DNA of 64,000 bases from Thermodesulfobacteriota bacterium. GTDB taxonomy: Bacteria > Desulfobacterota_D > UBA1144 > Nemesobacterales > JAJCZQ01. A program made the position numbers and the translations under genes. The notes beneath the pieces are model-generated. The model did no database searches, was not told the DNA's origin, and saw only the letters and a list, made by a program, of their open reading frames with translations. Within the stretch, counting starts at the first letter, position 1, and the number at the start of each line of letters is the position of its first letter. The stretch lies in contig CBDBDR010000017.1 in the NCBI GenBank assembly GCA_965203965.1, positions 288,001-352,000 of the forward strand, given 5' to 3'. This document shows positions 42,987-56,584 of the stretch, piece by piece.

Positions 42987-43161
42987 TATGTTTGAAAAAG
43001 AAACCGCAGGCACGCCCCGTTGTCAAGTATGGTAAATTGCCGAGATGATCTATGACGTTTCAGGTTCTAACAAAATATGGGTTCAGAAAAAATAATACAG
43101 TAATAAAGTTTCTACAAATTTTCTCTTGACACACGGTTATTTGTGCTTAAATTCTGGAATA

Positions 43162-43749
43162 ATGCAAAAGAAACTCGGTGATATTGCTACTGTTCAAATG
43201 GGATTTCCCTTTCGTTCACGTATTGAACCAGACGAGGATGGAAATGTCTCTATTATTCAAATGAGCAATTTAGGAGAAAATAGTTTGAAGGCTCATACGG
43301 ATCTGCTCAAGGTTTACCTAAAGAATATATCTCATAAGCACTTAGTGAAACAAAAAGATTTGATCTTTCGTTCAAGGGGAAAAACAATAAATGCAGTGAT
43401 AATTGATAAAGAAATTGAGCGAGCAGTCGTAGCGGCACCGTTAATTAGAATAAGAGTTACGGAAAAGGACGTTATTCCGGAATATCTTCTCTGGTTCATG
43501 AATCAGCCATTATCTCAAGCATTTTTGCACGGCAGAGCCACCGGAACTTCAATGCCTATGATCGGTAAGTCAACTCTTGAAGATCTGCGGATTACTATCC
43601 CTGATCTTGAAACTCAAAGGCAAATCGTAATACTTGCTCATTTATCGGACAAAGAGCAAAAACTAATGAAACGGTTGGCTAAGGCAAATGGTAGTTTAGT
43701 TCAAAAAACTTTGAAACAGTTGGTAACAGATCCTAAGAAGTCTTATTAG
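43162..43749 (+). CDS. Half-size (single TRD) type I R-M specificity subunit
   Basis: KKLGDIA, DLIFRSRG, PEYLLWFMN, IPDLETQRQI; directly upstream of hsdM. Confidence 0.8.
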   Translation: MQKKLGDIATVQMGFPFRSRIEPDEDGNVSIIQMSNLGENSLKAHTDLLKVYLKNISHKHLVKQKDLIFRSRGKTINAVIIDKEIERAVVAAPLIRIRVTEKDVIPEYLLWFMNQPLSQAFLHGRATGTSMPMIGKSTLEDLRITIPDLETQRQIVILAHLSDKEQKLMKRLAKANGSLVQKTLKQLVTDPKKSY

Positions 43750-43761
43750 AGGAGCAGAGAA

Positions 43762-45276
43762 ATGACAAATGGGACAATAGATCAAAAAAACATAGACAAT
43801 GCTGCATGGTCTGCCTGCAACACTTTTCGTGGAGTGATGGACGCGTCCGTTTACAAGGACTACATACTCGTGATGTTGTTTCTCAAATATGTTTCGGATG
43901 TTTGGAAGAGCCATTATGAGAAATACAAAAAGCAATACGGAGACCACAAAGAGCGCATCAACCGCCTTCTTAAAAATGAGCGGTTTGTTTTGCCTAAAGA
44001 CAGCAGTTTTTACAACCTGTATGAGAATCGTTCTGCTTCAAATATCGGTGAACTTATAAACATTGCGTTGACCGCATTTGAAGACGAAAACAAAGAGAAA
44101 CTGGAGGGTGTTTTCCGCAACATTGACTTCAATAGCGAAACAAATTTCGGCAAAACAAAAGACCGCAATCGCCGTCTTAAAACACTACTTGAAGATTTGA
44201 ACAAACCAGAGTTGGATATGAGTCCAGATAATGTTACAGAAGACATTATCGGCAATACATACATCTATCTGATAGAGCGTTTTGCGTCCGATGCTGGCAA
44301 AAAAGCGGGAGAGTTCTACACACCTCACAAGGTTTCGGAGTTGGTAGCAAAGTTATGCGACCCCAAGCCCGGAGCACGCATTTGCGACCCTACTTGTGGT
44401 TCTGGAGGGCTTCTAATTGAAGCCGCGCGCGAAGTGGGTGGCGATGATTACTCTCTTTGTGGGATGGAAGTCAACGGAGGTACTTGGGCGCTTTGTCGGA
44501 TGAATATGTTCCTTCACGGGATGGATTCAGCACGAATTGAATGGTGCAATACATTAACAGCCCCCGGACTCGTGGAAACCGACCGCCTGATGAGGTTTGA
44601 CAATATTGTCGCAAATCCACCTTTCTCGTTGGATAAGTGGGGAGCGGAAGAAGCGGGAAACGACATTTACAAGCGTTTTTGGCGAGGAATTCCTCCCAAG
44701 TCTAAGGGGGATTACGCTTTCATCAGTCACATGGTGGAGGCAGCTCTGGAAAAGAAAGGGCGCATTGCGGTTGTTGTCCCACATGGTGTTTTATTCAGGG
44801 GCGCGGCAGAGGGGCGTATCCGTCGCCATTTAATAGAAGAAAATCTGCTGGATGCCGTCATCGGCTTACCGGGTAATCTTTTTCCAACCACGTCCATTCC
44901 GGTTGCTATCTTGGTGTTTGACCGTTCACGCGAGACAGGTGGTGCAAATGAGAAACTCAAGGATGTGTTGTTCATTGATGCAAGCCGTGAGTATGAGTCC
45001 GGAAAAAATCAGAACAAGCTACTGGACAAGCATATAGAAAAGATCGTTGACACATATAAAAAGCGTAAAAGTGTTGACAAATATGCGCATTTGGCAAAAC
45101 CAGAAGAGATTGAAGAAAACGATTTCAACCTGAACATCCCGCGTTATGTGGACACCTTTGAGGAAGAAGAGGAGATAGATATAGACGCGGTGCAGCGAGA
45201 AATAGATCAACTGGAAAAAGAACTGTCCAAAGTGCGGATGGAGATGGCGAAAAAAATGAAGGAGATTAAAAGATGA
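43762..45276 (+). CDS. hsdM: Type I R-M methyltransferase subunit
   Basis: AGEFYTP, DPTCGSGG, ANPPF, PHGVLFRG, FNLNIPRYV. Confidence 0.97.
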   Translation: MTNGTIDQKNIDNAAWSACNTFRGVMDASVYKDYILVMLFLKYVSDVWKSHYEKYKKQYGDHKERINRLLKNERFVLPKDSSFYNLYENRSASNIGELINIALTAFEDENKEKLEGVFRNIDFNSETNFGKTKDRNRRLKTLLEDLNKPELDMSPDNVTEDIIGNTYIYLIERFASDAGKKAGEFYTPHKVSELVAKLCDPKPGARICDPTCGSGGLLIEAAREVGGDDYSLCGMEVNGGTWALCRMNMFLHGMDSARIEWCNTLTAPGLVETDRLMRFDNIVANPPFSLDKWGAEEAGNDIYKRFWRGIPPKSKGDYAFISHMVEAALEKKGRIAVVVPHGVLFRGAAEGRIRRHLIEENLLDAVIGLPGNLFPTTSIPVAILVFDRSRETGGANEKLKDVLFIDASREYESGKNQNKLLDKHIEKIVDTYKKRKSVDKYAHLAKPEEIEENDFNLNIPRYVDTFEEEEEIDIDAVQREIDQLEKELSKVRMEMAKKMKEIKR

Positions 45277-45494
45277 GCAAGATGCCAACAAATAAACATC
45301 ATCAAACATTTGAGGATGCTTGTCGCCGTACGGAAAACGGCGCCGAATTTTGGTCTGCACGCGAACTTTTGTCCATTCTCGATTATGGAAGTTGGGATAA
45401 ATTCAAGGCAGTCATTCATAAGTCTATAAGTGCTTGTGAGAATTCGGGCATGGTTTCCTCAGACCATTTTTCCCAGATGGGAAAAATGGTCTGA
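45273..45494 (+). pseudogene. dinD: DinD/BRO-like N-terminal fragment
   Basis: EFWSAREL..L.Y..W.KF..VI.K...ACENSG....DHF..GKMV then premature stop. Confidence 0.75.
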
Positions 45495-45614
45495 AGGGTT
45501 CGGGTCGGAGGTAATGGCTAAACAGGAGAGAAAGGAACAGGCATTGTTGAAAAGGATAAAAAGGGCATAAAATAGGTATTTTTTGCCTATATCTACAACG
45601 ACATATACACAAAA

Positions 45615-46184
45615 TTGAATTTTATGTACACATTAAGCAAACATATACATAATTTTGAGAGCATTCACCCGTTCCCTGACGGCAATGGTCGCATTGGTCG
45701 CGTGCTGAACGTGCTGTATCTGACGCACAAGGGGCTTTTAGACGCTCCCATCCTTTATTTGAGCCGAGCGATCAACCGCACAAAGCCAGACTACTACCGC
45801 TTATTGCAAGCCGTGCGTGAAGAGGGCGCATGGGAAGAATGGATCATCTACATACTGAGTGCCGTTACAGAAACGGCAAAATCAACCTTGCAACTTGTAT
45901 CGGGTATTCGGGAACTGATGGCTGAACACAAAAAACTTATACGAGATGAACTGCCGAAAATCTACTCTCAGGACTTGTTGAATAATCTGTTTCGCAACCC
46001 CTATACGCGTATTGACTACGTGGCGAAAGACCTAACGGTTGACCGCAGAACAGCACGCAAGTATCTCAAACAATTAACTGAAAAGGGGATTGTGGAGGAA
46101 GTAAAGGCGGGGAGGAACAACTACTACATAAACAAAAAACTGGTTGACCTGTTTGTCAGTGTCTCGGTGGAAGGGGATCAGTGA
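45615..46184 (+). pseudogene. Fic protein C-terminal fragment with HTH
   Basis: FESIHPFPDGNGRIGR near the ORF start, PILYLS, PYTRI, TARKYL; N-terminal half missing. Confidence 0.8.
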
Positions 46185-48334
46185 TGAGTAGGAAAGGGGA
46201 AAAGGAACGAGCGTTGCCCGATGGGTGGCAGGAAGTGAGGCTGGGGGACATAATGGAATTCAAAAATGGATTGAATACAGAGAAAGGAAACTATGGTAAG
46301 GGTGTAAAATTTGTGAACGTAATGGATGTTTTCAAGTTTAACTATCTTTATGAACATAATGTTGTTGGCTCTGTTCAAGTTAGTGAAAAAAACAGAATTG
46401 AATATTCAGTTAAATATGGGGATATCTTGTTTAATAGGACATCTGAAATACTTAATGAGATTGCTATGTCATCTGTATATCTCGATGAGAAAAAAATAAT
46501 CTTTGGAGGTTTTGTTATTAGAGGACGCCAAAAAATTACTGCTCTTACTCCTCGATTTTCTATTTGTTGTCTTCAATCCAATAAAGTACGAAAAGAATTA
46601 ATAAGACGAGGGCAAGGTGCCGTCCGAGCGAACATTGGACAAAAAGATCTAGCGAAAATTCCTGTTGTTATTCCACCGCTCCCCGAACAAAAAGCCATCA
46701 CCTCTTTACTGGAAACATGGGACACGGCGATTGAGAAAACTGAAGCATTGATTGAGGCAAAGGAAAAGCGGTTCAAGTGGTTGCTGAAAACACTCATCAG
46801 CAATCAGCAAGACAATCCTGAATGGCGGGAAGTGAGGTTGGGGGATGTTACGAAGGTTATTGTAGGCCAGTCTCCAAAAGGGATTTTCTATAATACAGAG
46901 GGTGAGGGCATGCCCTTCTATCAAGGTAAATCTGAATTTGGGAAAATCTACATTAACAATCCTAATATGTGGACTACTCAAACAACTAAAACGGCAGAGA
47001 AAGGCGATATTCTTATGTCCATTAGAGCTCCTGTTGGGTCAATTAACCGTACAAATAACAAAATTTGCATTGGCCGAGGGCTTGCTAGTATTAGGGTTCA
47101 TAGCATCAAACGAACGTTCTTATTTTTTTACTTGCAGTTTATCAAAAGCCAAATAATAGGAAATGGTGGCTCTATATTCAATTCGATTACTAAGCGTCAA
47201 GTTGAACAAATTCCAATTCTTTGCCCCCCAGTTTCTGAACAAAAAGCCATTGCTGCTGTACTAAACACGGTACAACGTGAAATTGATCTACTGGAACAAC
47301 TCACCCAACAATACCGCACACAAAAGCGCGTGCTGATGCAGAGATTATTGACAGGAGAATGGAGGACAAAGATGAATCGTTATATTCTGAGAATGGGCAC
47401 TTACGAGTGTCCTAAAACAGTAATTAAAAAAGAAAGATTTGAACAATTAAAGGAAGCGAGAAATATCTTGTCAAAAGCATTGGTTTTTGAGGGGAATTAC
47501 GAGATTATAGTGCATAATTACCTTGAGTTGGAAAAAGAATTGATGGGAATTACTATTGAAGATATTGGTAGAACTTATTATAGTTATGATGATTTCTTCA
47601 ATTATACACTTTCTTCTAATATCAGAGTATCAAACCTTCTGAATTCGGCAAAATTTTACATTGATACACTTTCGCAAACTCTCGAGAACTGCTTTCAAAA
47701 TGAGGAAGTTTCTCCTGATATAAAACAAATAATCAAAGAGGATGAGGGCAACTCGCTTCTTGAATTTGTTTATGAACTAAGGAACTATCTTCAGCATGTT
47801 GATTTGCCAGTGCATAACACCTTAATAAATAGAAGATGGACAGATGACAATCTTATGGAATATTCCACGCATATCTTTTCTTCAAAGAAATATCTTTCAG
47901 AGGATGAAAAGTCAGAATCAATACTTAAAAAAATGGAAGAACAAAAAATAATGAAAGAAGAAGAAATAAACCTAAACCTTACCATTAGACACTATGTAGA
48001 ATTCATCAGTAAAATGCATATTCAAACGAGATCTAAGATAGAAAAAAGAGTTAATGAGGCAAGAGATTGCATAGAATCTACGATTAAGGAATATTTAGAC
48101 GAACATAGGATTAAGGAAAAGGAATATTTAGATGAAGATGGGAAGTTTATAGGTTTTTTACATGCTTTCCATTTCAACCATAGTGAAATAGAAGAGAAAA
48201 TTCCTTTGTTTCTGGATTACGACGATGTTCGTCTTAATCTAATACGTAAGAACAACAAAGAACTGGTTAATCTACATAAACGATATGTTACAACACGAGT
48301 TGATTCAGTAAATAAGAAGGAAATATCTAAATAA
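46181..48334 (+). CDS. hsdS: HsdS (two TRDs) fused in frame to a 320-aa domain with an RxxxxH (HEPN-like) motif
   Basis: LPDGWQEVRLGD, PPLPEQKAI, WREVRLGD, PPVSEQKAIA, LMQRLLTGEWR, then MNRYIL...ELRNYLQH; internal GGAGG and ATG at 47372. Confidence 0.88.
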   Translation: MMSRKGEKERALPDGWQEVRLGDIMEFKNGLNTEKGNYGKGVKFVNVMDVFKFNYLYEHNVVGSVQVSEKNRIEYSVKYGDILFNRTSEILNEIAMSSVYLDEKKIIFGGFVIRGRQKITALTPRFSICCLQSNKVRKELIRRGQGAVRANIGQKDLAKIPVVIPPLPEQKAITSLLETWDTAIEKTEALIEAKEKRFKWLLKTLISNQQDNPEWREVRLGDVTKVIVGQSPKGIFYNTEGEGMPFYQGKSEFGKIYINNPNMWTTQTTKTAEKGDILMSIRAPVGSINRTNNKICIGRGLASIRVHSIKRTFLFFYLQFIKSQIIGNGGSIFNSITKRQVEQIPILCPPVSEQKAIAAVLNTVQREIDLLEQLTQQYRTQKRVLMQRLLTGEWRTKMNRYILRMGTYECPKTVIKKERFEQLKEARNILSKALVFEGNYEIIVHNYLELEKELMGITIEDIGRTYYSYDDFFNYTLSSNIRVSNLLNSAKFYIDTLSQTLENCFQNEEVSPDIKQIIKEDEGNSLLEFVYELRNYLQHVDLPVHNTLINRRWTDDNLMEYSTHIFSSKKYLSEDEKSESILKKMEEQKIMKEEEINLNLTIRHYVEFISKMHIQTRSKIEKRVNEARDCIESTIKEYLDEHRIKEKEYLDEDGKFIGFLHAFHFNHSEIEEKIPLFLDYDDVRLNLIRKNNKELVNLHKRYVTTRVDSVNKKEISK

Positions 48335-48455
48335 TAAATGACTTCATCTCAATTATTATAAGATTGAACAAAATTGTTTGATCTTATAAATTCTTGAGGT
48401 CTATGAAAAGCCTTGGAATTAACAAGACCACAGGCTACCGAATTGGCTCAACGGC

Positions 48456-49139
48456 TCAAAAAGAAATAAACTTGCTCAAACAATTATCTGAACAATACCG
48501 CACTCAAAAACGCGGGCTGATGCAGAAGTTGCTGACTGGAGAATGGAGGGTAAAGATATGATTACAAAAATCACGATGAACAATGTTACCAGTTTTAAAG
48601 AGAAAACCAGATTCATCTTTAACCGCTTGGGTTATGAATTTTCTAATGCGGTTCAAACGCCCATTAAAGGCAGAGTTAGCCCTTCTACGTAAGGTCAAAG
48701 TTCTGGTTGGATCAGTGCGTCTTCTTTCTGCCATTATGGGTTTTACCTTTGAGCTTCATCCAAGCCACAAAACGTGGTAATGTAGTATAATTTTCATTTA
48801 CTAATAGTATAGTTTTTTCTGTATAATAATTTTCAGCAATTCAGTATAGAAATAACGTTTTCTACATGATGAAACAAAGTTTGATCATTTGGAATTATAC
48901 TGTTCCATGATCAGGTCTATAAAGAGTTTTACAATGGGTGAAGCCATTCCTCAGACTCAGTCGGCGGAGTTGTATTGGCGGTTACGAGAGCCAAGCGGGC
49001 AAAACCACGCTGGCGTATCGTACGAAAATGTTCAATACATTGAACAAAATTGTTTGATCTGATAAATTCTTGAGGTCTATGAAAAGCCTTGGAATTAACA
49101 AGACCACAGGCTACTGAACTGGCTCAACAGCTCAAAAAG
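48456..49139 (+). repeat. About 680-bp direct repeat, unit A (partner 50241-50907)
   Basis: Collinear near-identity at offsets 1785 and 1770, with a divergent central segment of about 100 bp. Confidence 0.93.
48609..48800 (-). pseudogene. Phage-like fragment: possible minor head (MuF/SPP1 gp7) N-terminus plus tail of the upstream gene; second copy about 50394-50580
   Basis: MAERRRTDPTRTLTLRRRANSAFNGRLNRIRKFITQAV; family recalled from the DPTRT pattern, not searched. Confidence 0.4.
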
Positions 49140-49233
49140 AAATAGACTTGCTCAAACAATTAGCAGAACGATACCGCACTCAAAAGCGCGGGCTGATGCA
49201 GAAGTTGCTGACTGGGGAGTGGAGAGTGAAGAG

Positions 49234-50181
49234 ATGAGCACATCTTTTAAAATATTAAGCATAGATGGTGGAGGAGTGCGAGGAATTCTTCCCGCCAAGA
49301 TACTGAAGCTCATGGAAGCCGAGCTCGGCATAGACGTACATGAAACCTTTGATCTCATTGTTGGCACTAGCACTGGTAGTATCATAGCTGGGGCAATCGC
49401 CGTAAAGTACAAATTGGCTAAATTAGTAAGTGATTACAATGAAAATGCTCCGAAAGTTTTCAAGAAAAGATGGAATTTCATGGGGCTTTACAGATCTAAA
49501 TACAGTTCAGCCTTCCTTGAAAGTTTTCTTCGTAAAATATTTGGTGAGGTTACATTGGGAGAAATAGAAAAACCGCTCATTCTTAATGCTACAAATATCA
49601 GCGATGGTAATCTTCATGTTTTCAAGTCATCGTATCAAAAAAAACAACGAGAGGGGGAAGAGGAGCAGGTTTATAACAGGGATGGAGGAGTACCTTTGTA
49701 CAAAGCAACTCTAGCCTCTTGTTCGGCACCAATTTATTTTGATCCGGTGAAGATAATATTTGATCCGGTGGATAAAGAAGAAAAACTTATTTGTGACGGG
49801 GGTATTTGGGCTAATAATCCTTCCTTGGTTGGATACAGTGACGCTATCAGGAATTTCAAGAATGTTGGAACCGATAATGTCAAGATCTTGTCTTTGGGAA
49901 CTGGACAAACCAAGCAAATTTACCAACCAGCAAAAGCATGGGGATACTTAACGGGATGGAAACATACGAAATTGATAGACTTCTCCATATCATGTCAGAC
50001 AGAGTTTCCTAAAAATGTTTTGGAACTTATTGATTTAGATAAAATTCTCAGGATCAACCCTTCTATTGATAATTACGAGATTGACAATTACCAAAGCATC
50101 CCAAAGTTAATGGAACTGGCTAAAAAGGAATTCAATAGTAGCAGTGAAAAAATTTCAAATTTTCTTAACATAAGAAGATAG
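49234..50181 (+). CDS. Patatin-like phospholipase (CapV-like)
   Basis: ILSIDGGGVRG, GTSTG, SCSAP.YF, DGGIWANNP, ILSLGTG; ATG overlaps the TGA of an hsdS tail. Confidence 0.9.
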   Translation: MSTSFKILSIDGGGVRGILPAKILKLMEAELGIDVHETFDLIVGTSTGSIIAGAIAVKYKLAKLVSDYNENAPKVFKKRWNFMGLYRSKYSSAFLESFLRKIFGEVTLGEIEKPLILNATNISDGNLHVFKSSYQKKQREGEEEQVYNRDGGVPLYKATLASCSAPIYFDPVKIIFDPVDKEEKLICDGGIWANNPSLVGYSDAIRNFKNVGTDNVKILSLGTGQTKQIYQPAKAWGYLTGWKHTKLIDFSISCQTEFPKNVLELIDLDKILRINPSIDNYEIDNYQSIPKLMELAKKEFNSSSEKISNFLNIRR

Positions 50182-50240
50182 GAGACAAAAATTACAGTTT
50201 ACGAGGAAAAATTTGTTCTCTTTTCTGATAGGTATTCCTG

Positions 50241-50907
50241 TCAAAAAGAAATGGACTTGCTCAAACAATTAGCAGAACGATACCGCACTCAAAAACGCGG
50301 TTTGATGCAGAGGTTGTTGACTGGAGAATGGAGGGTGAAGATATGATCACAAAGATCACGATGAACAACATCACCAGTTTTAAAGAGAAAAGCAGATTCA
50401 TCTTTAACCGCTTGGGTTATGAATTTTCTAATGAGGTTCAAACGCCCATTAAAGGCAGAGTTAGCCCTTCTACGTAAGGTTAAAGTTCTGGTTAGATCAG
50501 TGCGTCTTCTTTCTGCCATTATGCGTCTTACCTTTGAGCTTCATCCAAGCCACAAAACGTGGTAATGTAGTATAATTTTTTCCACCCAATATGGAGAAAA
50601 AACTGTATAGAAATTTTTACTGATTGTTGTATAAAAATAGAATTATAAGGCTGAATTTTCGGCATTATATTGCTCCATGATCAGGTCTATAAAGAGTTTT
50701 ACAATGAGTGAAGCCATTCCTCAGACTCAGTCGGCGGAGTTGTATTGGCGGTTACGAAAGCCAAGCAGGCAAGACCACGCTGGCGTACCGTACGAAAATG
50801 TTCAGTACATTGAACAAAATTGTTTCATCTGATAAACTTTCACATCTATGAAAAGCCTGGAATTAACAAGACCACAGGCTACCGAACTGGCTCAACGGCT
50901 CAAAAAG
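50241..50907 (+). repeat. About 670-bp direct repeat, unit B
   Basis: Partner of 48456-49139. Confidence 0.93.
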
Positions 50908-51232
50908 CCTTGCCGGTTTATTCAGTCCATATCGGGGGCGAAGCAGAAAAGAAAAGTCGCTTTGCTGATATTGGGTGAGGTGCAGAAGTTTCCACACTGG
51001 TCAGCGATTGTAAAATATCTTTGGGATGAAGATAGTCGCATGAAAAGAATGGTGGCGGCAAAGTGCCTGTTTCGTTTCCCAGATTGGACGTTTTTTGCAA
51101 AATATTCAAAACTGCTCAGCAGTTGATCGTTTCCTGTCAACGCCTGCGGAACATTGGTTAAATTGATGCCTGATTTTCTATTTGACGAAAAAAGCCTCTC
51201 CCAGATCCCAGCTTTACAGCAGTTGATCAATC
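50848..51232 (+). pseudogene. Multiply deleted copy of the AAA_14/DUF4143 gene plus the hsdR 5' end
   Basis: Ordered blocks match about 51457-51556, 51700-51810, 52523-52596 and 52624-52728. Confidence 0.9.
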
Positions 51233-51385
51233 CAGTGCAACAATTGGTTTTTGGGATGAATGGAAGAAAGAAAAGGATGGACAAAGGAATAAAAGAATCT
51301 ATTGAAACATTAAGAAAACAGAGTAAATCTCAATGAAAATAACACTAAAACAGGGGAAGCAAGCACTGCTTTTAAATAACAAAAA

Positions 51386-51425
51386 TGTTCAATACATTGA
51401 ACATTTTTGTTCAATGTATTGAACA
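51386..51425. promoter_or_regulatory. Tandem palindromic operator TGTTCAAT-NN-ATTGAACA (two copies, 22-bp period); single copies at 49029 and 50799, half site at 48363
   Basis: Exact 8-2-8 palindromes about 30 bp upstream of every copy of the AAA_14 ATG. Confidence 0.75.
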
Positions 51426-51456
51426 AAATTGTTCAGTCTGATAATCTTTTTAGGCG

Positions 51457-52662
51457 ATGAAAAGTCCGAAATTCATAAGACCTCAAGCCACCGAATTATT
51501 GCGACGACTCAAAGAGCCTCGCCGGTTTATTCAATCCATATCGGGGGCGAGGCAGATCGGCAAAACAACCCTTGCCCTACAAGTGGCAGAGCAAAGCCGA
51601 TTGCCTTATCACTTTGCAAGTGCTGATAGGCCGACGCTTCGCGCCGGTGATGGATGGATCGTGTCGCAATGGAAGGAGGCGCGACATCTGGCGGAACAAT
51701 CAAAAAGGAAAGGCGCTTTGCTGATATTGGATGAGGTGCATAAGGTTCCACACTGGCCAGCGACTGTAAAAGGTCTTTGGGATGAAGATACTCGCATGAA
51801 AAGAATGGTGAAGGTGGTGCTGCTCGGTTCAGCACCGCTGTTGATCGGGCGAGGACTTACGGAAAGCCTCGCCGGGCGTTTTGAAACCGTGTATCTGCCA
51901 CATTGGAGTTTTCCCGAGATGCGAGATGCCTTCGGATGGGATTTGCAACAATATCTTTTTTACGGTGCCTATCCGGGAGCCTCACCCTTCATAAAACAGC
52001 CGGCGCGCTGGTCGCGCTACATAAAGAACTCTCTTATAGAAACAACCATTTCCCGCGATGTGCTTTTATTTTCCCCTGTGGACAAACCGGCTTTGCTTAG
52101 GCAATTGTTCGAGATGGGTTGTTCCTATTCGGGGCAGGTACTCTCTTACAGAAAACTTGCAGGACTGCTTCAGGATAAAGGTAACGTTACCACCCTTGCG
52201 CATTACCTTGACTTGCTCGCCGGAGTCGGCACGGTTGCCGGGTTGCAAAAATATGCGGGTAGCTTCGGGGCACGCCGGCGTTCCATACCCAAACTTCAAG
52301 TCTTCAACACTGCCCTGATCACCGCGCAATCTGGGATGACCTGGCAGGAGGTGTTCAAAGATGGACGACTGCTGGGGCGGCTTACGGAGTCGGCCGTGGG
52401 AGCTCATCTGCTCAATGCAGCCACTGGCGGGGAGTGTGAATTATTCTATTGGCGAGATAACAATCGCGAAGTAGATTTTGTTTTGCGCAGAGGAAAGAAG
52501 CTTGTTGCCATAGAAGTAAAAAGCGGTAAAATGCCTGTTTCGTTTCCCGGATTGGATGCTTTTTCCAAAATATTCAAAACTGCTCAGCAGTTGATTGTTG
52601 GTGAAGGCGGAATTCCCATTGATCGTTTCCTGTCAACACCTGCGGAACATTGGTTAAATTGA
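51457..52662 (+). CDS. AAA_14 ATPase with DUF4143 PD-(D/E)xK domain
   Basis: GARQIGKTT, LDEVH, ESLAGR, YGAYP, ESAV, EVDFV..IEVKSG. Confidence 0.9.
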   Translation: MKSPKFIRPQATELLRRLKEPRRFIQSISGARQIGKTTLALQVAEQSRLPYHFASADRPTLRAGDGWIVSQWKEARHLAEQSKRKGALLILDEVHKVPHWPATVKGLWDEDTRMKRMVKVVLLGSAPLLIGRGLTESLAGRFETVYLPHWSFPEMRDAFGWDLQQYLFYGAYPGASPFIKQPARWSRYIKNSLIETTISRDVLLFSPVDKPALLRQLFEMGCSYSGQVLSYRKLAGLLQDKGNVTTLAHYLDLLAGVGTVAGLQKYAGSFGARRRSIPKLQVFNTALITAQSGMTWQEVFKDGRLLGRLTESAVGAHLLNAATGGECELFYWRDNNREVDFVLRRGKKLVAIEVKSGKMPVSFPGLDAFSKIFKTAQQLIVGEGGIPIDRFLSTPAEHWLN

Positions 52663-55600
52663 TGCCTGATTTTCTATCTGACGAAAAATGCCTCTCCCAG
52701 ATCCCAGCTTTACAGCAACTGATAAATCTGGGCTATGAGTATCTGCCACCTGAACAGGCGTTTCAGGAACGCAATAGCAAATACGGCAATGTTTTGCTGG
52801 AAAACATACTGCGAGACCAACTCAAAAAAATAAACCGCATTAATTATAGAGGCAGAGAATACCTTTTCAGTGAGGAGAACATTCAGTCTGCCATTGAGAA
52901 GATCAAAAACATTCCATATGACGGTTTGATAAAAACAAATGAAAAGATCTACGATCTTTTGACGCTTGGCACGTCGCTTAAGCAGACCATTGAGGGCGAT
53001 TCCAAAAGTCACACACTTCGCTATATTGACTGGGAAAATACGAATGCAAATGTTTTTCACGCCACTGCGGAGTTTTCGGTTGAACGTTCCCGGAGTTCTG
53101 AAACTGTAAGACCGGACATTGTGCTGTTTGTAAACGGCATTCCTCTTGTTGTGATTGAGTGCAAAACGTCCGGAGTTGCCGTGGATGAAGGCGTTTCTCA
53201 GATGATCCGCAATCAGGGAGAGGATCATATTCCTCGCCTTTTTACTTATGTGCAGTTGGTAATGGCTGTAAATAAGAATGAGGCAAAATACGCGACCGCC
53301 GGAACTTCAAAGAAATTCTGGAGCGTCTGGAAAGAGTTAGAAGATCACGAAGATGAAACAAAAACCATTGTGGATCAACCGCTTTCAGATGAGAACAAGA
53401 ATGTTCTTTTTTCTTCCAATGAATTTGCTTATGCCCGTGCGCATTTTGATAAAATTGAGAGCCAAGGTGGACGTCTTGTTACGGAACAAGATAAAGCAGT
53501 TCATAGCCTGTGCCGTCCTGAGCGCCTGCTTGAGATCGTTTACGGGTTTACAATTTTTGATAGTAAAACAAAAAAAATTGCCAGATACCAACAGTTCTTT
53601 CTTGTTCGCTCGGCAATTAAAAACATCAAAACAAAAAACAGTGAGGGTGTGAGAAAAGGTGGGATCGTGTGGCACACGCAAGGTTCTGGTAAATCCATAA
53701 CAATGGTTATGCTCACGCGAGCCCTTGTGATGGATCCGGAACTGAAAAACACGCGGATCATTCTTGTTACAGACCGCAAAGATCTGGACGAACAACTCGG
53801 CAACACCTTTGCTGCTTGCGGTTTGAACAAAGAACGCGCCACTTCGGGACGTGATCTGGTCAAGCATATAAAACGCAAGACGGACATTATCACCACGTTG
53901 ATAAACAAATTTGAAACGGCATCTGCTGCCGAAAAATACGTAGATGATTCACCTGATATTATCGCTCTTGTGGACGAGAGCCACCGCACAAATTTCGGGG
54001 AATTGTCCGCAAATATGAGGAGGATGCTTCCAAAGGCATGCTTTATAGGTTTTACCGGCACTCCGTTGCTAAAAAAAGAGAAAAACAGTTTTGCGCGCTT
54101 TGGGGAGTTGATTGAGCCGTCTTATCCGGTCAGAGCAGCCATAGATGACAAACAGGTTGTCCCTCTGATCTACGAGGGTCGGCATGTGGAGATAAAACAG
54201 GATAAAGAAGCCATTGATAAATGGTTTGCCCGTCATACTGAGGGGCTTTCCGATAAACAGAAAACTGATCTAAAGAAAAAATATTCACGTGCTGCAAAAC
54301 TGAACAATTCCGATAGGGTCATCTATATGACGGCTTTTGACATTAGCGAGCATTTTCGCGCCAATTGGAAAGAGACGGGAGAGATGGGATTTAAGGCTCA
54401 ACTTGTGGCTCTGAACAAGGCAACTGCTCTTAAATATCACAACTATCTTAAAGAGATAGGAATGGTTTCATCAGAGGTGATCATTTCTGCTCCGGATACG
54501 CGTAAGGGGTATGAGGAAGTGGGTGCTGAATCTGAAAATGAAATTGTTAAATTCTGGAAATTGATGATGGAAAGGCACAGCAATGAAGAAAAATATAACC
54601 AGAATATAATCAATCAGTTCAAGGACTCCGAACATCCTGAAATTCTTATTGTCGTGGATAAACTGCTGACCGGATTTGACGCGCCCAGAAACACTGTTCT
54701 TTATTTGTGTCGCTCCTTGAGAGAACATACCTTGCTTCAGGCAATAGCGCGCGTTAACCGTCTTTGTGAAGGCAAGGAATTTGGCTACATAATTGACTAT
54801 GCCCATGTTCTTGAAGAACTTGACAAGACCTTGACGACATACGAAGCCCTTGCGGGTTTTGAAGAGAGTGAAATTGCAGACCTTCTTATTTCCATTAACG
54901 AAGAAGTGAAAAAACTTCCTCAACGCTATTCAGACCTTTGGGAGGTCTTCAAAGAGATCAAAAATTCCCACGATGAAGAAGTGTATGAGAGACACCTTGC
55001 AGATGAGGAATTAAGAAACAAATTTTATGAACGATTTACCGCCTACGGGAAAACCCTTTCCATTGCGCTTTCATCCGAGAAATTCATTACGGAAATCTCT
55101 GATACTGAACTGAAAAACTATAAGGGTGATCTCAAACGTTTTAATAAACTGCGCCATGCAGTGAGATCGCGCTATGCCGACACGATTGATTACGGAGAGT
55201 ACGAGCGGAAAATAAAGAAACTGCTGGACACCCACGTAAAAGCGGACGATGTTACGCAGCTAAACTATCCGGTCAATATCTTTGACGATCAAACATTTAA
55301 GGAAATGAAAGATAAACGGGGCATTTACGAAACAAAAACCACTGCGGCGAGGGCGGATATCATAGCGCACAATATCAGACGCAAAATTACGGAGAGTCTG
55401 GAAAAAGACCCGGCTTTCTATAAGAAGTTTTCAAAACTTATTCAGGACGCGATTGATGACTTTAAAAAAGAGCGGATATCAGACCTTGATTATTTGGATA
55501 GAGTAACAGACATACGAAATGAGGTCGCTGATAGAAAAAAACGTGAAGATGTCCCTGCTGATATAGCGGACAACGATGAGGCATCCGCGTATTTTGGGGT

Positions 55601-55874
55601 GATAAGACCGATCCTGAAAGAAATTGCTGCCGACGAGAATTTAACTGAACAAGTAGCGATGCTGACTGCCATTGCCATTCAAGAAGCAATAGAAAGAAAC
55701 TGGAAAGTGGATTTTTGGAACGATAGCGATGCGCAGAAGAGAATGAAAAATGATATTGACAGTTTTTTCTATGATGAGGTTGAGGATGTTCATGGCATTG
55801 ATCTGACCGAGTATCAGATGGATGAAATTTTTGGCAAAACAATGAAAGTGGCAAAATTCTGGAGATATTCCTGA
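52662..55874 (+). CDS. hsdR: Type I R-M restriction subunit
   Basis: PDIVLFVNGIPLVVIECK, HTQGSGKS, DESHR, GFTGTP, LLTGFDAP, QAIARVNR. Confidence 0.97.
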   Translation: MPDFLSDEKCLSQIPALQQLINLGYEYLPPEQAFQERNSKYGNVLLENILRDQLKKINRINYRGREYLFSEENIQSAIEKIKNIPYDGLIKTNEKIYDLLTLGTSLKQTIEGDSKSHTLRYIDWENTNANVFHATAEFSVERSRSSETVRPDIVLFVNGIPLVVIECKTSGVAVDEGVSQMIRNQGEDHIPRLFTYVQLVMAVNKNEAKYATAGTSKKFWSVWKELEDHEDETKTIVDQPLSDENKNVLFSSNEFAYARAHFDKIESQGGRLVTEQDKAVHSLCRPERLLEIVYGFTIFDSKTKKIARYQQFFLVRSAIKNIKTKNSEGVRKGGIVWHTQGSGKSITMVMLTRALVMDPELKNTRIILVTDRKDLDEQLGNTFAACGLNKERATSGRDLVKHIKRKTDIITTLINKFETASAAEKYVDDSPDIIALVDESHRTNFGELSANMRRMLPKACFIGFTGTPLLKKEKNSFARFGELIEPSYPVRAAIDDKQVVPLIYEGRHVEIKQDKEAIDKWFARHTEGLSDKQKTDLKKKYSRAAKLNNSDRVIYMTAFDISEHFRANWKETGEMGFKAQLVALNKATALKYHNYLKEIGMVSSEVIISAPDTRKGYEEVGAESENEIVKFWKLMMERHSNEEKYNQNIINQFKDSEHPEILIVVDKLLTGFDAPRNTVLYLCRSLREHTLLQAIARVNRLCEGKEFGYIIDYAHVLEELDKTLTTYEALAGFEESEIADLLISINEEVKKLPQRYSDLWEVFKEIKNSHDEEVYERHLADEELRNKFYERFTAYGKTLSIALSSEKFITEISDTELKNYKGDLKRFNKLRHAVRSRYADTIDYGEYERKIKKLLDTHVKADDVTQLNYPVNIFDDQTFKEMKDKRGIYETKTTAARADIIAHNIRRKITESLEKDPAFYKKFSKLIQDAIDDFKKERISDLDYLDRVTDIRNEVADRKKREDVPADIADNDEASAYFGVIRPILKEIAADENLTEQVAMLTAIAIQEAIERNWKVDFWNDSDAQKRMKNDIDSFFYDEVEDVHGIDLTEYQMDEIFGKTMKVAKFWRYS

Positions 55875-56584
55875 TGTCAGAAGTTCAATGTTCTGTTAAA
55901 TATGGAGACGATCCTATTGAGTTTCGCTTAACGTACTCAAAAAGAAAATCTCTGGAAATTTCGGTCTATCCAAATGGCGCGGTTGCCGTGAAAGCTCCAC
56001 TTGGAACGAATGAAGACCTTGTTATGCGCCGAGTTCGCAAGCGCTCCCGGTGGATAAAAAAACAGATTGATTATTTTTCACAGTTTGAACCCCGAACACC
56101 AAAACGGAGGTTTGTGGGTGGGGAAAGCCATCTCTATCTCGGCAGAAAATACAGGCTGAAGATAACGCAGTCCAAAGACGAGGGAGTTTTGCTCAAGAGA
56201 GGATTTTTTCATATAGGGGTTTCCGCAAACAAACCCGAGACCGTTTCGGCGTTACTTGAAAATTGGTATAGGAGCAGGGCTGACCTTTATTTTTCTCAAG
56301 TGTTTGAGAATTGCTGGGAGAATTTTCAGAAAAAAGGACTGGAAAAACCCGCTCTCAAGATCCGCAAAATGAAAACACGTTGGGGAAGTTTGAGTCCCAA
56401 AGGCAAAATGACCCTTAACCAAGATCTTATCAAAGCTCCCAGAGAGTGCATTGAGTATGTGGTCATACACGAACTATGCCACCTGCTTCATCATAATCAC
56501 GGCAAGGAGTTCTATAACTTGCTTGATCACTTACTGCCTGATTGGACAAAACGGAAACATAAATTGGAAAAGGTGCTTTCTTAG
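55874..56584 (+). CDS. YgjP/DUF45 (M48-like) metallohydrolase, commonly after hsdR
   Basis: GESHLYLG, MKTRWGS, YVVIHELCHL..NH. Confidence 0.9.
   Translation: MSEVQCSVKYGDDPIEFRLTYSKRKSLEISVYPNGAVAVKAPLGTNEDLVMRRVRKRSRWIKKQIDYFSQFEPRTPKRRFVGGESHLYLGRKYRLKITQSKDEGVLLKRGFFHIGVSANKPETVSALLENWYRSRADLYFSQVFENCWENFQKKGLEKPALKIRKMKTRWGSLSPKGKMTLNQDLIKAPRECIEYVVIHELCHLLHHNHGKEFYNLLDHLLPDWTKRKHKLEKVLS

Follow-up and report, generated by a model that had tools for sequence, protein, structure and literature searches.

Repeated hsdS tails in a type I restriction-modification operon as probable scars of inter-strain cargo stacking

In the parts of the literature accessible to us, defence cargo within type I restriction-modification (R-M) operons is described for PrrC (PMC12707154), for TgvAB (PMC12409362) and under the term 'guilt by embedding' (Payne et al., bioRxiv 10.1101/2024.01.29.577857). 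Two further processes offer points of comparison in the sections available of the respective papers: for Rhs arrays, a single crossover of a circular intermediate has been proposed (Jackson et al. 2009, PMC2935791), and insertion with long target duplication is found mostly in competent species (Furuta, Abe and Kobayashi 2010, PMC2853133). Here we describe a locus whose seams give a readable record of how several embedded defence genes come together in one operon. It lies in a 64,000-nucleotide stretch of the genome of a sponge-associated Thermodesulfobacteriota bacterium (GCA_965203965.1, contig CBDBDR010000017.1, forward-strand positions 288,001 to 352,000; hereafter the window), where a type I R-M operon sits between cobA and uvrB and the 3' end of hsdS recurs as an array in the 5.3 kb between hsdS and hsdR. 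This array is an unusually dense example of a recurring scar pattern, and more a fossil record than a working cassette machine. Coordinates are window positions, and genes, tails and seams are on the forward strand unless stated otherwise.

The last ~34 codons of hsdS are present in four direct-orientation copies, each 5' of a cargo start, as an earlier note on this DNA had described. The native tail T0 (47267–47373) is fused in frame with a 320-amino-acid (aa) gene, and the orphan tails T1 (48451–48561), T2 (49127–49237) and T3 (50241–50346, start approximate) each overlap the next gene through an ATGA stop/start. Identity amounts to 71–75% between the extra tails and T0, and to 90% among the extra tails. 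The tail has probably been retained since it brings the cargo a ribosome site along with the ATGA overlap. Each repeating unit is bounded by remnants of the flanking core genes, with an hsdS tail in front and an AAA_14 or hsdR head behind. At seam J1 (48363–48463), half a palindrome and the 5' end of an AAA_14 gene are joined to T1; at J2 (49029–49139), the palindrome TGTTCAAT-AC-ATTGAACA and an AAA_14 5' end are joined to T2. In both, the palindrome and the first ~20 AAA_14 codons enter the tail at the identical base (48463 and 49139). A 1-base insertion at J1 brings the AAA_14 ATG (48403) into the T1 frame and creates an open 52-codon leader ending on the next ATG, and the leader at J2 is interrupted by a stop. 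Seam J3 (50182–50240) is a 59-bp linker open in the T3 frame; it has no AAA_14 piece, and its 59 bases are unrelated and of other origin. A second type of scar follows at 50799–51232, where a palindrome and an AAA_14 pseudo-copy with three internal deletions run into a 22-codon hsdR head (51166–51232), ahead of the intact AAA_14-hsdR pair. Rfam yielded no family at the seams, with chance matches only.

Both AAA_14-to-tail junctions are thus present as first reported, but the shared sequence proposed there as a joining microhomology is not visible within the window. Genome-wide, the 13-mer AC[GA]GCTCAAAAAG is limited to three places: J1, J2 and position 50895 within the AAA_14 pseudo-copy. The native hsdS agrees with 8 of its 13 positions, and the allele of the intact AAA_14 gene is a different one. 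Since the native hsdS and the intact AAA_14 lack the 13-mer, we infer the seam microhomology from related hsdS genes, three of which (L105, L125 and L029) carry GC(T/A)CAAAA(A/G)GAAAT, most of the seam 13-mer.

The tails diverged inside different working hsdS alleles, because their differences show a synonymous excess, unlike those of a pseudogene piece; the separate origins originally favoured over one recent duplication are therefore borne out. Drift after one duplication predicts ~28% synonymous differences. Among T1–T3, 9 of 15 variable sites are synonymous (expected 0.28, p 0.009), and compared with T0 the three tails show 15 of 26, 18 of 30 and 16 of 27 synonymous differences, respectively. 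As a control, 1 of 10 differences is synonymous in the middle piece of the AAA_14 pseudo-copy, in line with drift. When units 1 and 3 are compared, 16 of 156 bases differ over tail and stub, against 5 of 182 in the non-coding piece next to them (p 0.006). In seven orphan-versus-native tail pairs from four other genomes, 47 of 70 differences are synonymous, a count that leaves out a misaligned G027 pair (one codon shift) and becomes 60 of 128 with it.

On balance, we consider it probable that the array consists of scars of inter-strain stacking, made by one homologous crossover and one microhomology joint. The route and the order of events that we infer would run as follows. The donor would be another strain or species with a related operon (hsdS' tail - cargo' - AAA_14'/hsdR'); one RecA-type crossover would occur in the conserved flank and one microhomology joint on the opposite side. 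Equivalently, the donor DNA could close into a circle and integrate by a single crossover, so that the circles suggested in the earlier note may be one of two possible routes. Either way, the new cargo would be added in tandem, with the hsdS-hsdR slot expanded and not merely swapped, and the seam left behind would consist of the downstream core gene's head fused to the final 15–75 codons of hsdS, which keep the ribosome site and the ATGA coupling. Repeated tails and heads would then allow unequal homologous exchange between strains to copy or drop units. The genome has RecA and ComEC. No recombinase or transposase was found among the scanned open reading frames (ORFs) of 38–60 kb, in agreement with what had been noticed before; genome-wide, there is no IntI over the TIGR02249 cut-off and no resolvase, and two PF00589 tyrosine recombinases of Xer size (301 and 305 aa) lie 200 kb and 1.07 Mb away.

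Scars of this kind recur in other genomes. Tail profiles were run over 120 genomes of the phylum and 41 regions were read, 31 of them with hsdS followed by hsdR. Besides the window, extra tails are found in 4 of 30 type I loci of the phylum: in G005 (four) and in G027, G011 and G020 (one each), although the profile contained the native tails of G005, G027 and G011, so that their detection was favoured. Genome G005 holds five tails of another hsdS family, 77–89% alike, with four different upstream joints and cargos bearing RT, DUF1828/1829, DUF6338, Fic and AAA_21 domains. Within this hsdS-hsdR cargo stack, the opposite strand carries an inserted gene for a 2,112-aa surface-type protein rich in repeats (L160; G005:C1:1040600-1046900). 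In G011, an orphan tail follows a 119-bp, 70% identical copy of the cargo end plus hsdR head, and in G023 a degenerate tail, recognized by eye, continues the frame of an hsdR head. The counts exclude tails that stand alone with no hsdS nearby (G019, G025, G027:C13) and an hsdS that is probably frameshifted (G122). In a gammaproteobacterial family (126 genomes, 16 regions read), extra tails lie within the interval in G205 (two loci), G171 and G158; one G205 locus joins an 83-bp hsdR head (85%) to a 111-bp tail (90%) with an ATGA-coupled helicase gene. Because tail lengths range from 44 to 226 bp across loci, a fixed crossover site is argued against.

The predicted layout with variable cargo in relatives also holds: the same chassis occurs with other single cargos in one gammaproteobacterial and several Latescibacterota assemblies (L094, L104-L108), and cargo varies among the related operons (L094, L104-L108, L029, L118, L123 and others). 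The AAA_14-to-hsdS junction itself, which had been expected to recur, was confined to the window's genome when 41 and 120 related genomes were searched at the DNA level; elsewhere the head is that of hsdR or is absent. A degenerate tail pattern had no match in metagenome contigs, and self-comparison of 80 HsdR-relative and 28 metagenome hsdS loci revealed no tail array. As a separate observation, duplicated hsdM ends or heads (169–234 bp, 81–94%) flank embedded genes in G205 and G122 (L187, L188, L190), a scar pattern beyond hsdS.

Several points weigh against stacking between strains. When loci were rescanned with their own tails, an extra tail turned up in only one of the 97 other loci in which hsdS was detected (37 bp, L088), and two further matches, 3' of hsdR in L101 and L106, were discarded; this is a rough floor given many short loci and several mis-called hsdS ends. 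Of the 486 E. coli genomes that matched one tail family, no more than 16 did so at a second place. Because these groups were sampled differently, an enrichment of extra tails in sponge-type lineages is only a hint. Neither a donor allele nor an empty-site strain of the same species was obtained. Turnover appears slow, because a diverged strain in sequencing run X2 (see below) keeps the HEPN-like and patatin cargos. The other AAA_14 pseudo-copy pieces and the AAA_14 head and hsdR head comparisons are not significant (p 0.07–0.6). The synonymous counts are small, the pairs are non-independent, and the same signal would arise if successive native hsdS alleles had converted the tails. Finally, at least one plain duplication occurred, because J1 and J2 share their base and units 1 and 3 share a broken stub.

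This last point leads to an intragenomic alternative, in which a tandem duplication arose at microhomology, deletions ensued, one copy had its cargo replaced and the tails underwent gene conversion, so that no special route of stacking would be involved. We regard it as possible, though rather unlikely. It would accommodate the units at 48456–49139 and 50241–50907, which are 87% identical and truncated at the same point, the coincidence of J1 and J2, the three deletions and neutral drift of the AAA_14 pseudo-copy, and the scars of G011 and G005, which take in part of the same neighbouring cargo, either its end or its head. It fits poorly with tails and a stub that diverge under purifying selection when the adjoining junk does not, and with the four different joints and unrelated cargos of G005. 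Duplication alone also supplies no new cargo.

Stacking between strains can also be widened into a general claim, namely that the hsdS 3' end and the head of the next core gene form an enzyme-free cassette platform. Units of tail, cargo and head would pass between members of different phyla living side by side and enter an operon by one crossover. ATGA coupling or an in-frame leader would keep them expressed, and recombination between tails could drop or reorder them; in dense communities such as sponges, type I operons would in this way hold a changeable defence stack. This generalization strikes us as quite unlikely.

Strain data bear on whether such units still move. The stretch is present in ten public runs, of which four are labelled sponge metagenome; the contig comparison covered four of the ten (X1, X2, X4 and X8), and X4 was too shallow for judging absences. 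Run X2 contains a minor strain identical to the window (depth 8–10) and a major strain that is 0.7–2% diverged (depth ~22). The major strain departs from the window at the start of both hsdS recognition domains and keeps the cargo 1 gene and T2-patatin-T3-stub. Over the intact AAA_14 gene and over 48512–49012, only minor-strain depth is seen, which suggests that the major strain is without the AAA_14 unit. Because of this contig and depth pattern, the stack is common to two strains and partly variable.

According to the earlier note, the segment of hsdS tail, cargo and AAA_14 promoter acts as a cassette in an integron-like system. The anatomy of the unit stands, with the head of the next core gene as its rear boundary, but a live recombinase-free system, in which circles form between tails, re-integrate or transfer, and have their cargo expressed from the AAA_14 promoter and in-frame leader, seems very unlikely to us. 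The ~100-bp direct repeats at 90% identity would be RecA substrates, the open leader of J1 ends on a cargo ATG, one X2 strain appears to be without one unit, and the Rhs model, as far as the available text sets it out, is of like kind (PMC2935791). Among the joints listed, however, there are no circular joints and no go-back or skip joints between tails at strain depth, bearing in mind that contigs drop rare variants and circles and that a crossover within a repeat leaves no joint. Three low-depth joints in X8 (47330-51379, 48539-52725 and 49049-49127, with sides of 21–29 letters) were attributed to other organisms. At J2 the leader is interrupted, the one at J1 drives a stub, no sigma-70 match lies at the palindrome, and the seams are old (70–93% identity). 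In addition, the diverged X2 strain keeps the HEPN-like and patatin cargos, and two of the four cargos are dead and one is an orphan effector, because the stub is cut twice and the patatin has no SMODS cyclase.

The palindromes raise the question of site-specific insertion. Tandem palindromes at 51378–51433, 5' of the intact AAA_14 gene, are operator-like. The 18-bp element is present in one to three tandem copies, 22 bp apart, 5' of AAA_14-DUF4143 (PDC-S01) genes in three genomes (window 51378–51433; L003:2634-2691; L094:9222-9267), and is probably a self-regulation operator of these genes. A promoter scan gave no excess (7 found versus 8.3 expected). Directly 3' of the AAA_14 orthologue in G027:C13 lies a CRISPR-like array with a ~36-bp repeat (L003:200-1300), and at L094:9226-9929 the palindrome and AAA_14 head are duplicated (93%) around a small gene, which we take to be HicB-like, with the AAA_14 body deleted. 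Insertion by the host XerC/D at the palindrome or tail start could draw on the 18-bp palindrome at three seams, the head-plus-palindrome duplication in L094, and the start points of J1–J3 and the G205 seam, which fall within about two codons of one another. We nevertheless consider it extremely improbable: three palindrome copies precede the AAA_14 orthologue in G027, a lone gene outside any R-M locus, which is the placement of an operator, the tails vary in length as described, and the seams of G005, G011, G020 and G205 have no palindrome in the sequence read.

Assembly error would undermine the array altogether. Contigs from runs X1 and X8, which belong to two studies and either of which may be the source sample, match the window without differences over hsdS-cargo 1-J1 head and over T2-patatin-J3-T3. 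X1 contigs also bridge the AAA_14 pseudo-copy without differences, and J3 is bridged in X1, X8 and X2. J1 and J2 are unbridged among the contigs listed, which break at repeats. As contigs of two studies agree letter for letter across several seams, X8 covers the unique pieces at an even depth of 59–65, and the source is a 1.5-Mb contig of a genome with 0.07% contamination, a chimera of strain variants, the outcome that the earlier note had named as fatal to its reading, deserves next to no credence despite the two unbridged seams and the possible shared source.

Turning to the cargos, an anti-phage role may be envisaged for them from their sequences. Cargo 1 (47372–48334) is the 320-aa gene fused in frame to HsdS, a probable HEPN nuclease with the motif R137-N-Y-x-Q-H142. 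R137 and H142 are the sole invariant columns across 140 aligned homologues, in keeping with the HEPN R-x4-6-H motif; a HEPN-motif domain had been noticed here before. The confident predicted structure (predicted local distance difference test score 92.7) matches the HEPN entries 8xdj (Z 7.4, root-mean-square deviation 3.4, 112 aligned), 7ae2 (Z 7.2) and 4nqf (Z 6.7), which tie with unrelated helical bundles at Z 7.7. Foldseek returned no match at E 0.001 and the Atlas unnamed clusters only; there was no match in Pfam, PHROG, PADLOC or NCBIfam, and 2 of 140 family members match HEPN_LA2681. A HEPN nuclease is likely, though not proven. The family comprises 2,745 unannotated representatives of ~300 aa, and the relatives are stand-alone proteins of about that size; among longer proteins, the domain was seen only in the HsdS fusion of the window, which is weak evidence. 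Runs X1 and X8 carry the identical fusion (46184–48334). It would be unusual for a guard nuclease to be tethered to the specificity subunit, and the fusion may be a harmless or harmful frameshift.

Cargo 2 (48558–48611) is an 18-codon stub of an ATPase-like gene. It was named as an ABC/AAA ATPase, present twice; the two copies are there, but the name, which would reflect a putative likeness to ABC-ATPase N-termini, is tentative because the stub matched no family model (none in Pfam, PHROG with a best E of 0.14, PADLOC or NCBIfam). Both copies are cut at the identical base by a reverse-strand phage head-gene fragment. A junk spacer follows at 48612–49028, consisting of this reverse phage head-morphogenesis fragment (to 48734; phrog_758, E 2.7e-4), an A/T-rich stretch and the 5' fragment of a second AAA_14-type gene (weak match, E 0.02–0.09). 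The head fragment had no match among the phage genomes searched. A diverged copy of the spacer, with head fragment and A/T-rich stretch, lies in a housekeeping operon between mreC and mreD (G000:C17:1278776-1279084; L001:9777-10085), and an 11-mer at the end of this copy is also seen, by eye, 5' of an AAA_21 gene in the G005 array. Cargo 4 (50343–50798) is the second copy of stub and spacer.

Cargo 3 (49234–50181) is an intact CapV-like patatin phospholipase without a cyclase partner, and its assignment as a patatin is confirmed by PF01734, by NCBIfam CBASS_lipase NF041079 (206 bits against a cut-off of 200) and by PADLOC, which calls it a phospholipase effector. The enzyme that would be expected beside it in CBASS (antiphage signalling based on cyclic oligonucleotides), a cGAS/DncV-like nucleotidyltransferase, is missing: no SMODS domain (PF18144) was matched in the genome. 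In L118, a metagenome locus of the same chassis family, a patatin and a SMODS cyclase lie together 3' of hsdS.

The chassis carries hsdM, hsdS and hsdR on one strand with extra genes between them, as in other type I R-M operons with embedded cargo. It opens with a half-size hsdS with one Methylase_S domain (43126–43749; PF01420, E 5e-14), which also occurs 5' of hsdM in L106-L108 and L029, followed by hsdM (43762–45276; PF02384, PF12161). Between hsdM and hsdS lies a decayed segment (45273–46184) with a DinD/Bro-N 5' stub (45273–45494) and the C-terminal half of a SoFic gene (45615–46184), the Fic piece being 89% identical in DNA to L094; a perfect 17-bp inverted repeat (45459–45494) marks where the DinD-like stub stops. 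The full hsdS (46184–47371; PF01420 twice), with two target-recognition domains, lacks a stop codon and continues into cargo 1 as one ORF (46181–48334, 717 aa). Downstream of the array come the intact AAA_14-DUF4143 gene (51457–52662; PADLOC PDC-S01), hsdR (52662–55874), a YgjP-like peptidase gene (55874–56584) and uvrB. Comparison of the cobA-uvrB interval in relatives, which had been proposed as a check, shows no R-M operon there in 4 of 4 other genomes of the family. In these relatives (L202-L205) the interval is variable and holds an AAA_14-type gene, large repeat proteins or a sigma/anti-sigma set.

What the seams offer is a way of reading such operons. Their position marks the unit boundaries, the synonymous divergence shows an origin from different working operons, and the head/tail form predicts a recombination route. 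Seams can thus be used to delimit and mine defence cargo, an example being the 2,745-representative family with its invariant HEPN-type motif. In the literature searched, which held few subscription papers and no supplements, no paper on hsdS-tail stacking was found.

Among described systems, integrons are characterized by IntI, attI and attC. The array resembles them in its tandem single-gene, defence-type cassettes separated by repeats, but the genome has no IntI over the cut-off, and the repeats are remnants of coding sequence whose crossover point is not fixed; going by the sequence and a repeat search, these hsdS coding ends, with their varying joints and lengths, are not attC sites. With the embedded-defence reports, the locus shares variable same-strand cargo between hsdS and hsdR, and the AAA_14 gene of the window is itself PDC-S01. 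The accessible portions of those papers describe cargo but not stacking, and the available Payne text contains the words recombination, tandem and hsdS zero times. As with insertion with long target duplication, at least in the sections available of that report (PMC2853133), the repeats exceed 30 bp (~100-bp tails here), vary in length, involve no mobile element and often span a start or stop codon. There, however, the insert is an entire R-M system or a lone R or M gene, one per site, between near-identical repeats and with an empty site, whereas here the R-M operon is the target, inserts without R-M genes stack, and the repeats are 71–90% alike. The likeness to Rhs C-terminal displacement, again as far as the accessible text goes (PMC2935791), lies in variable-length direct repeats of a conserved gene piece, each with a different cargo, 3' of the intact gene and without a recombinase. 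In that system an rhs core is repeated and the cargo is the toxin tip belonging to that gene, while here the repeat is the hsdS 3' end, so that the locus falls outside Rhs/CDI arrays with their rhs/cdi core and toxin tip. The cargo here is a gene of its own, and many seams include the head of the downstream core gene as well. In conclusion, the array appears by analogy to work like Rhs displacement or insertion with long target duplication, and is a member of neither.

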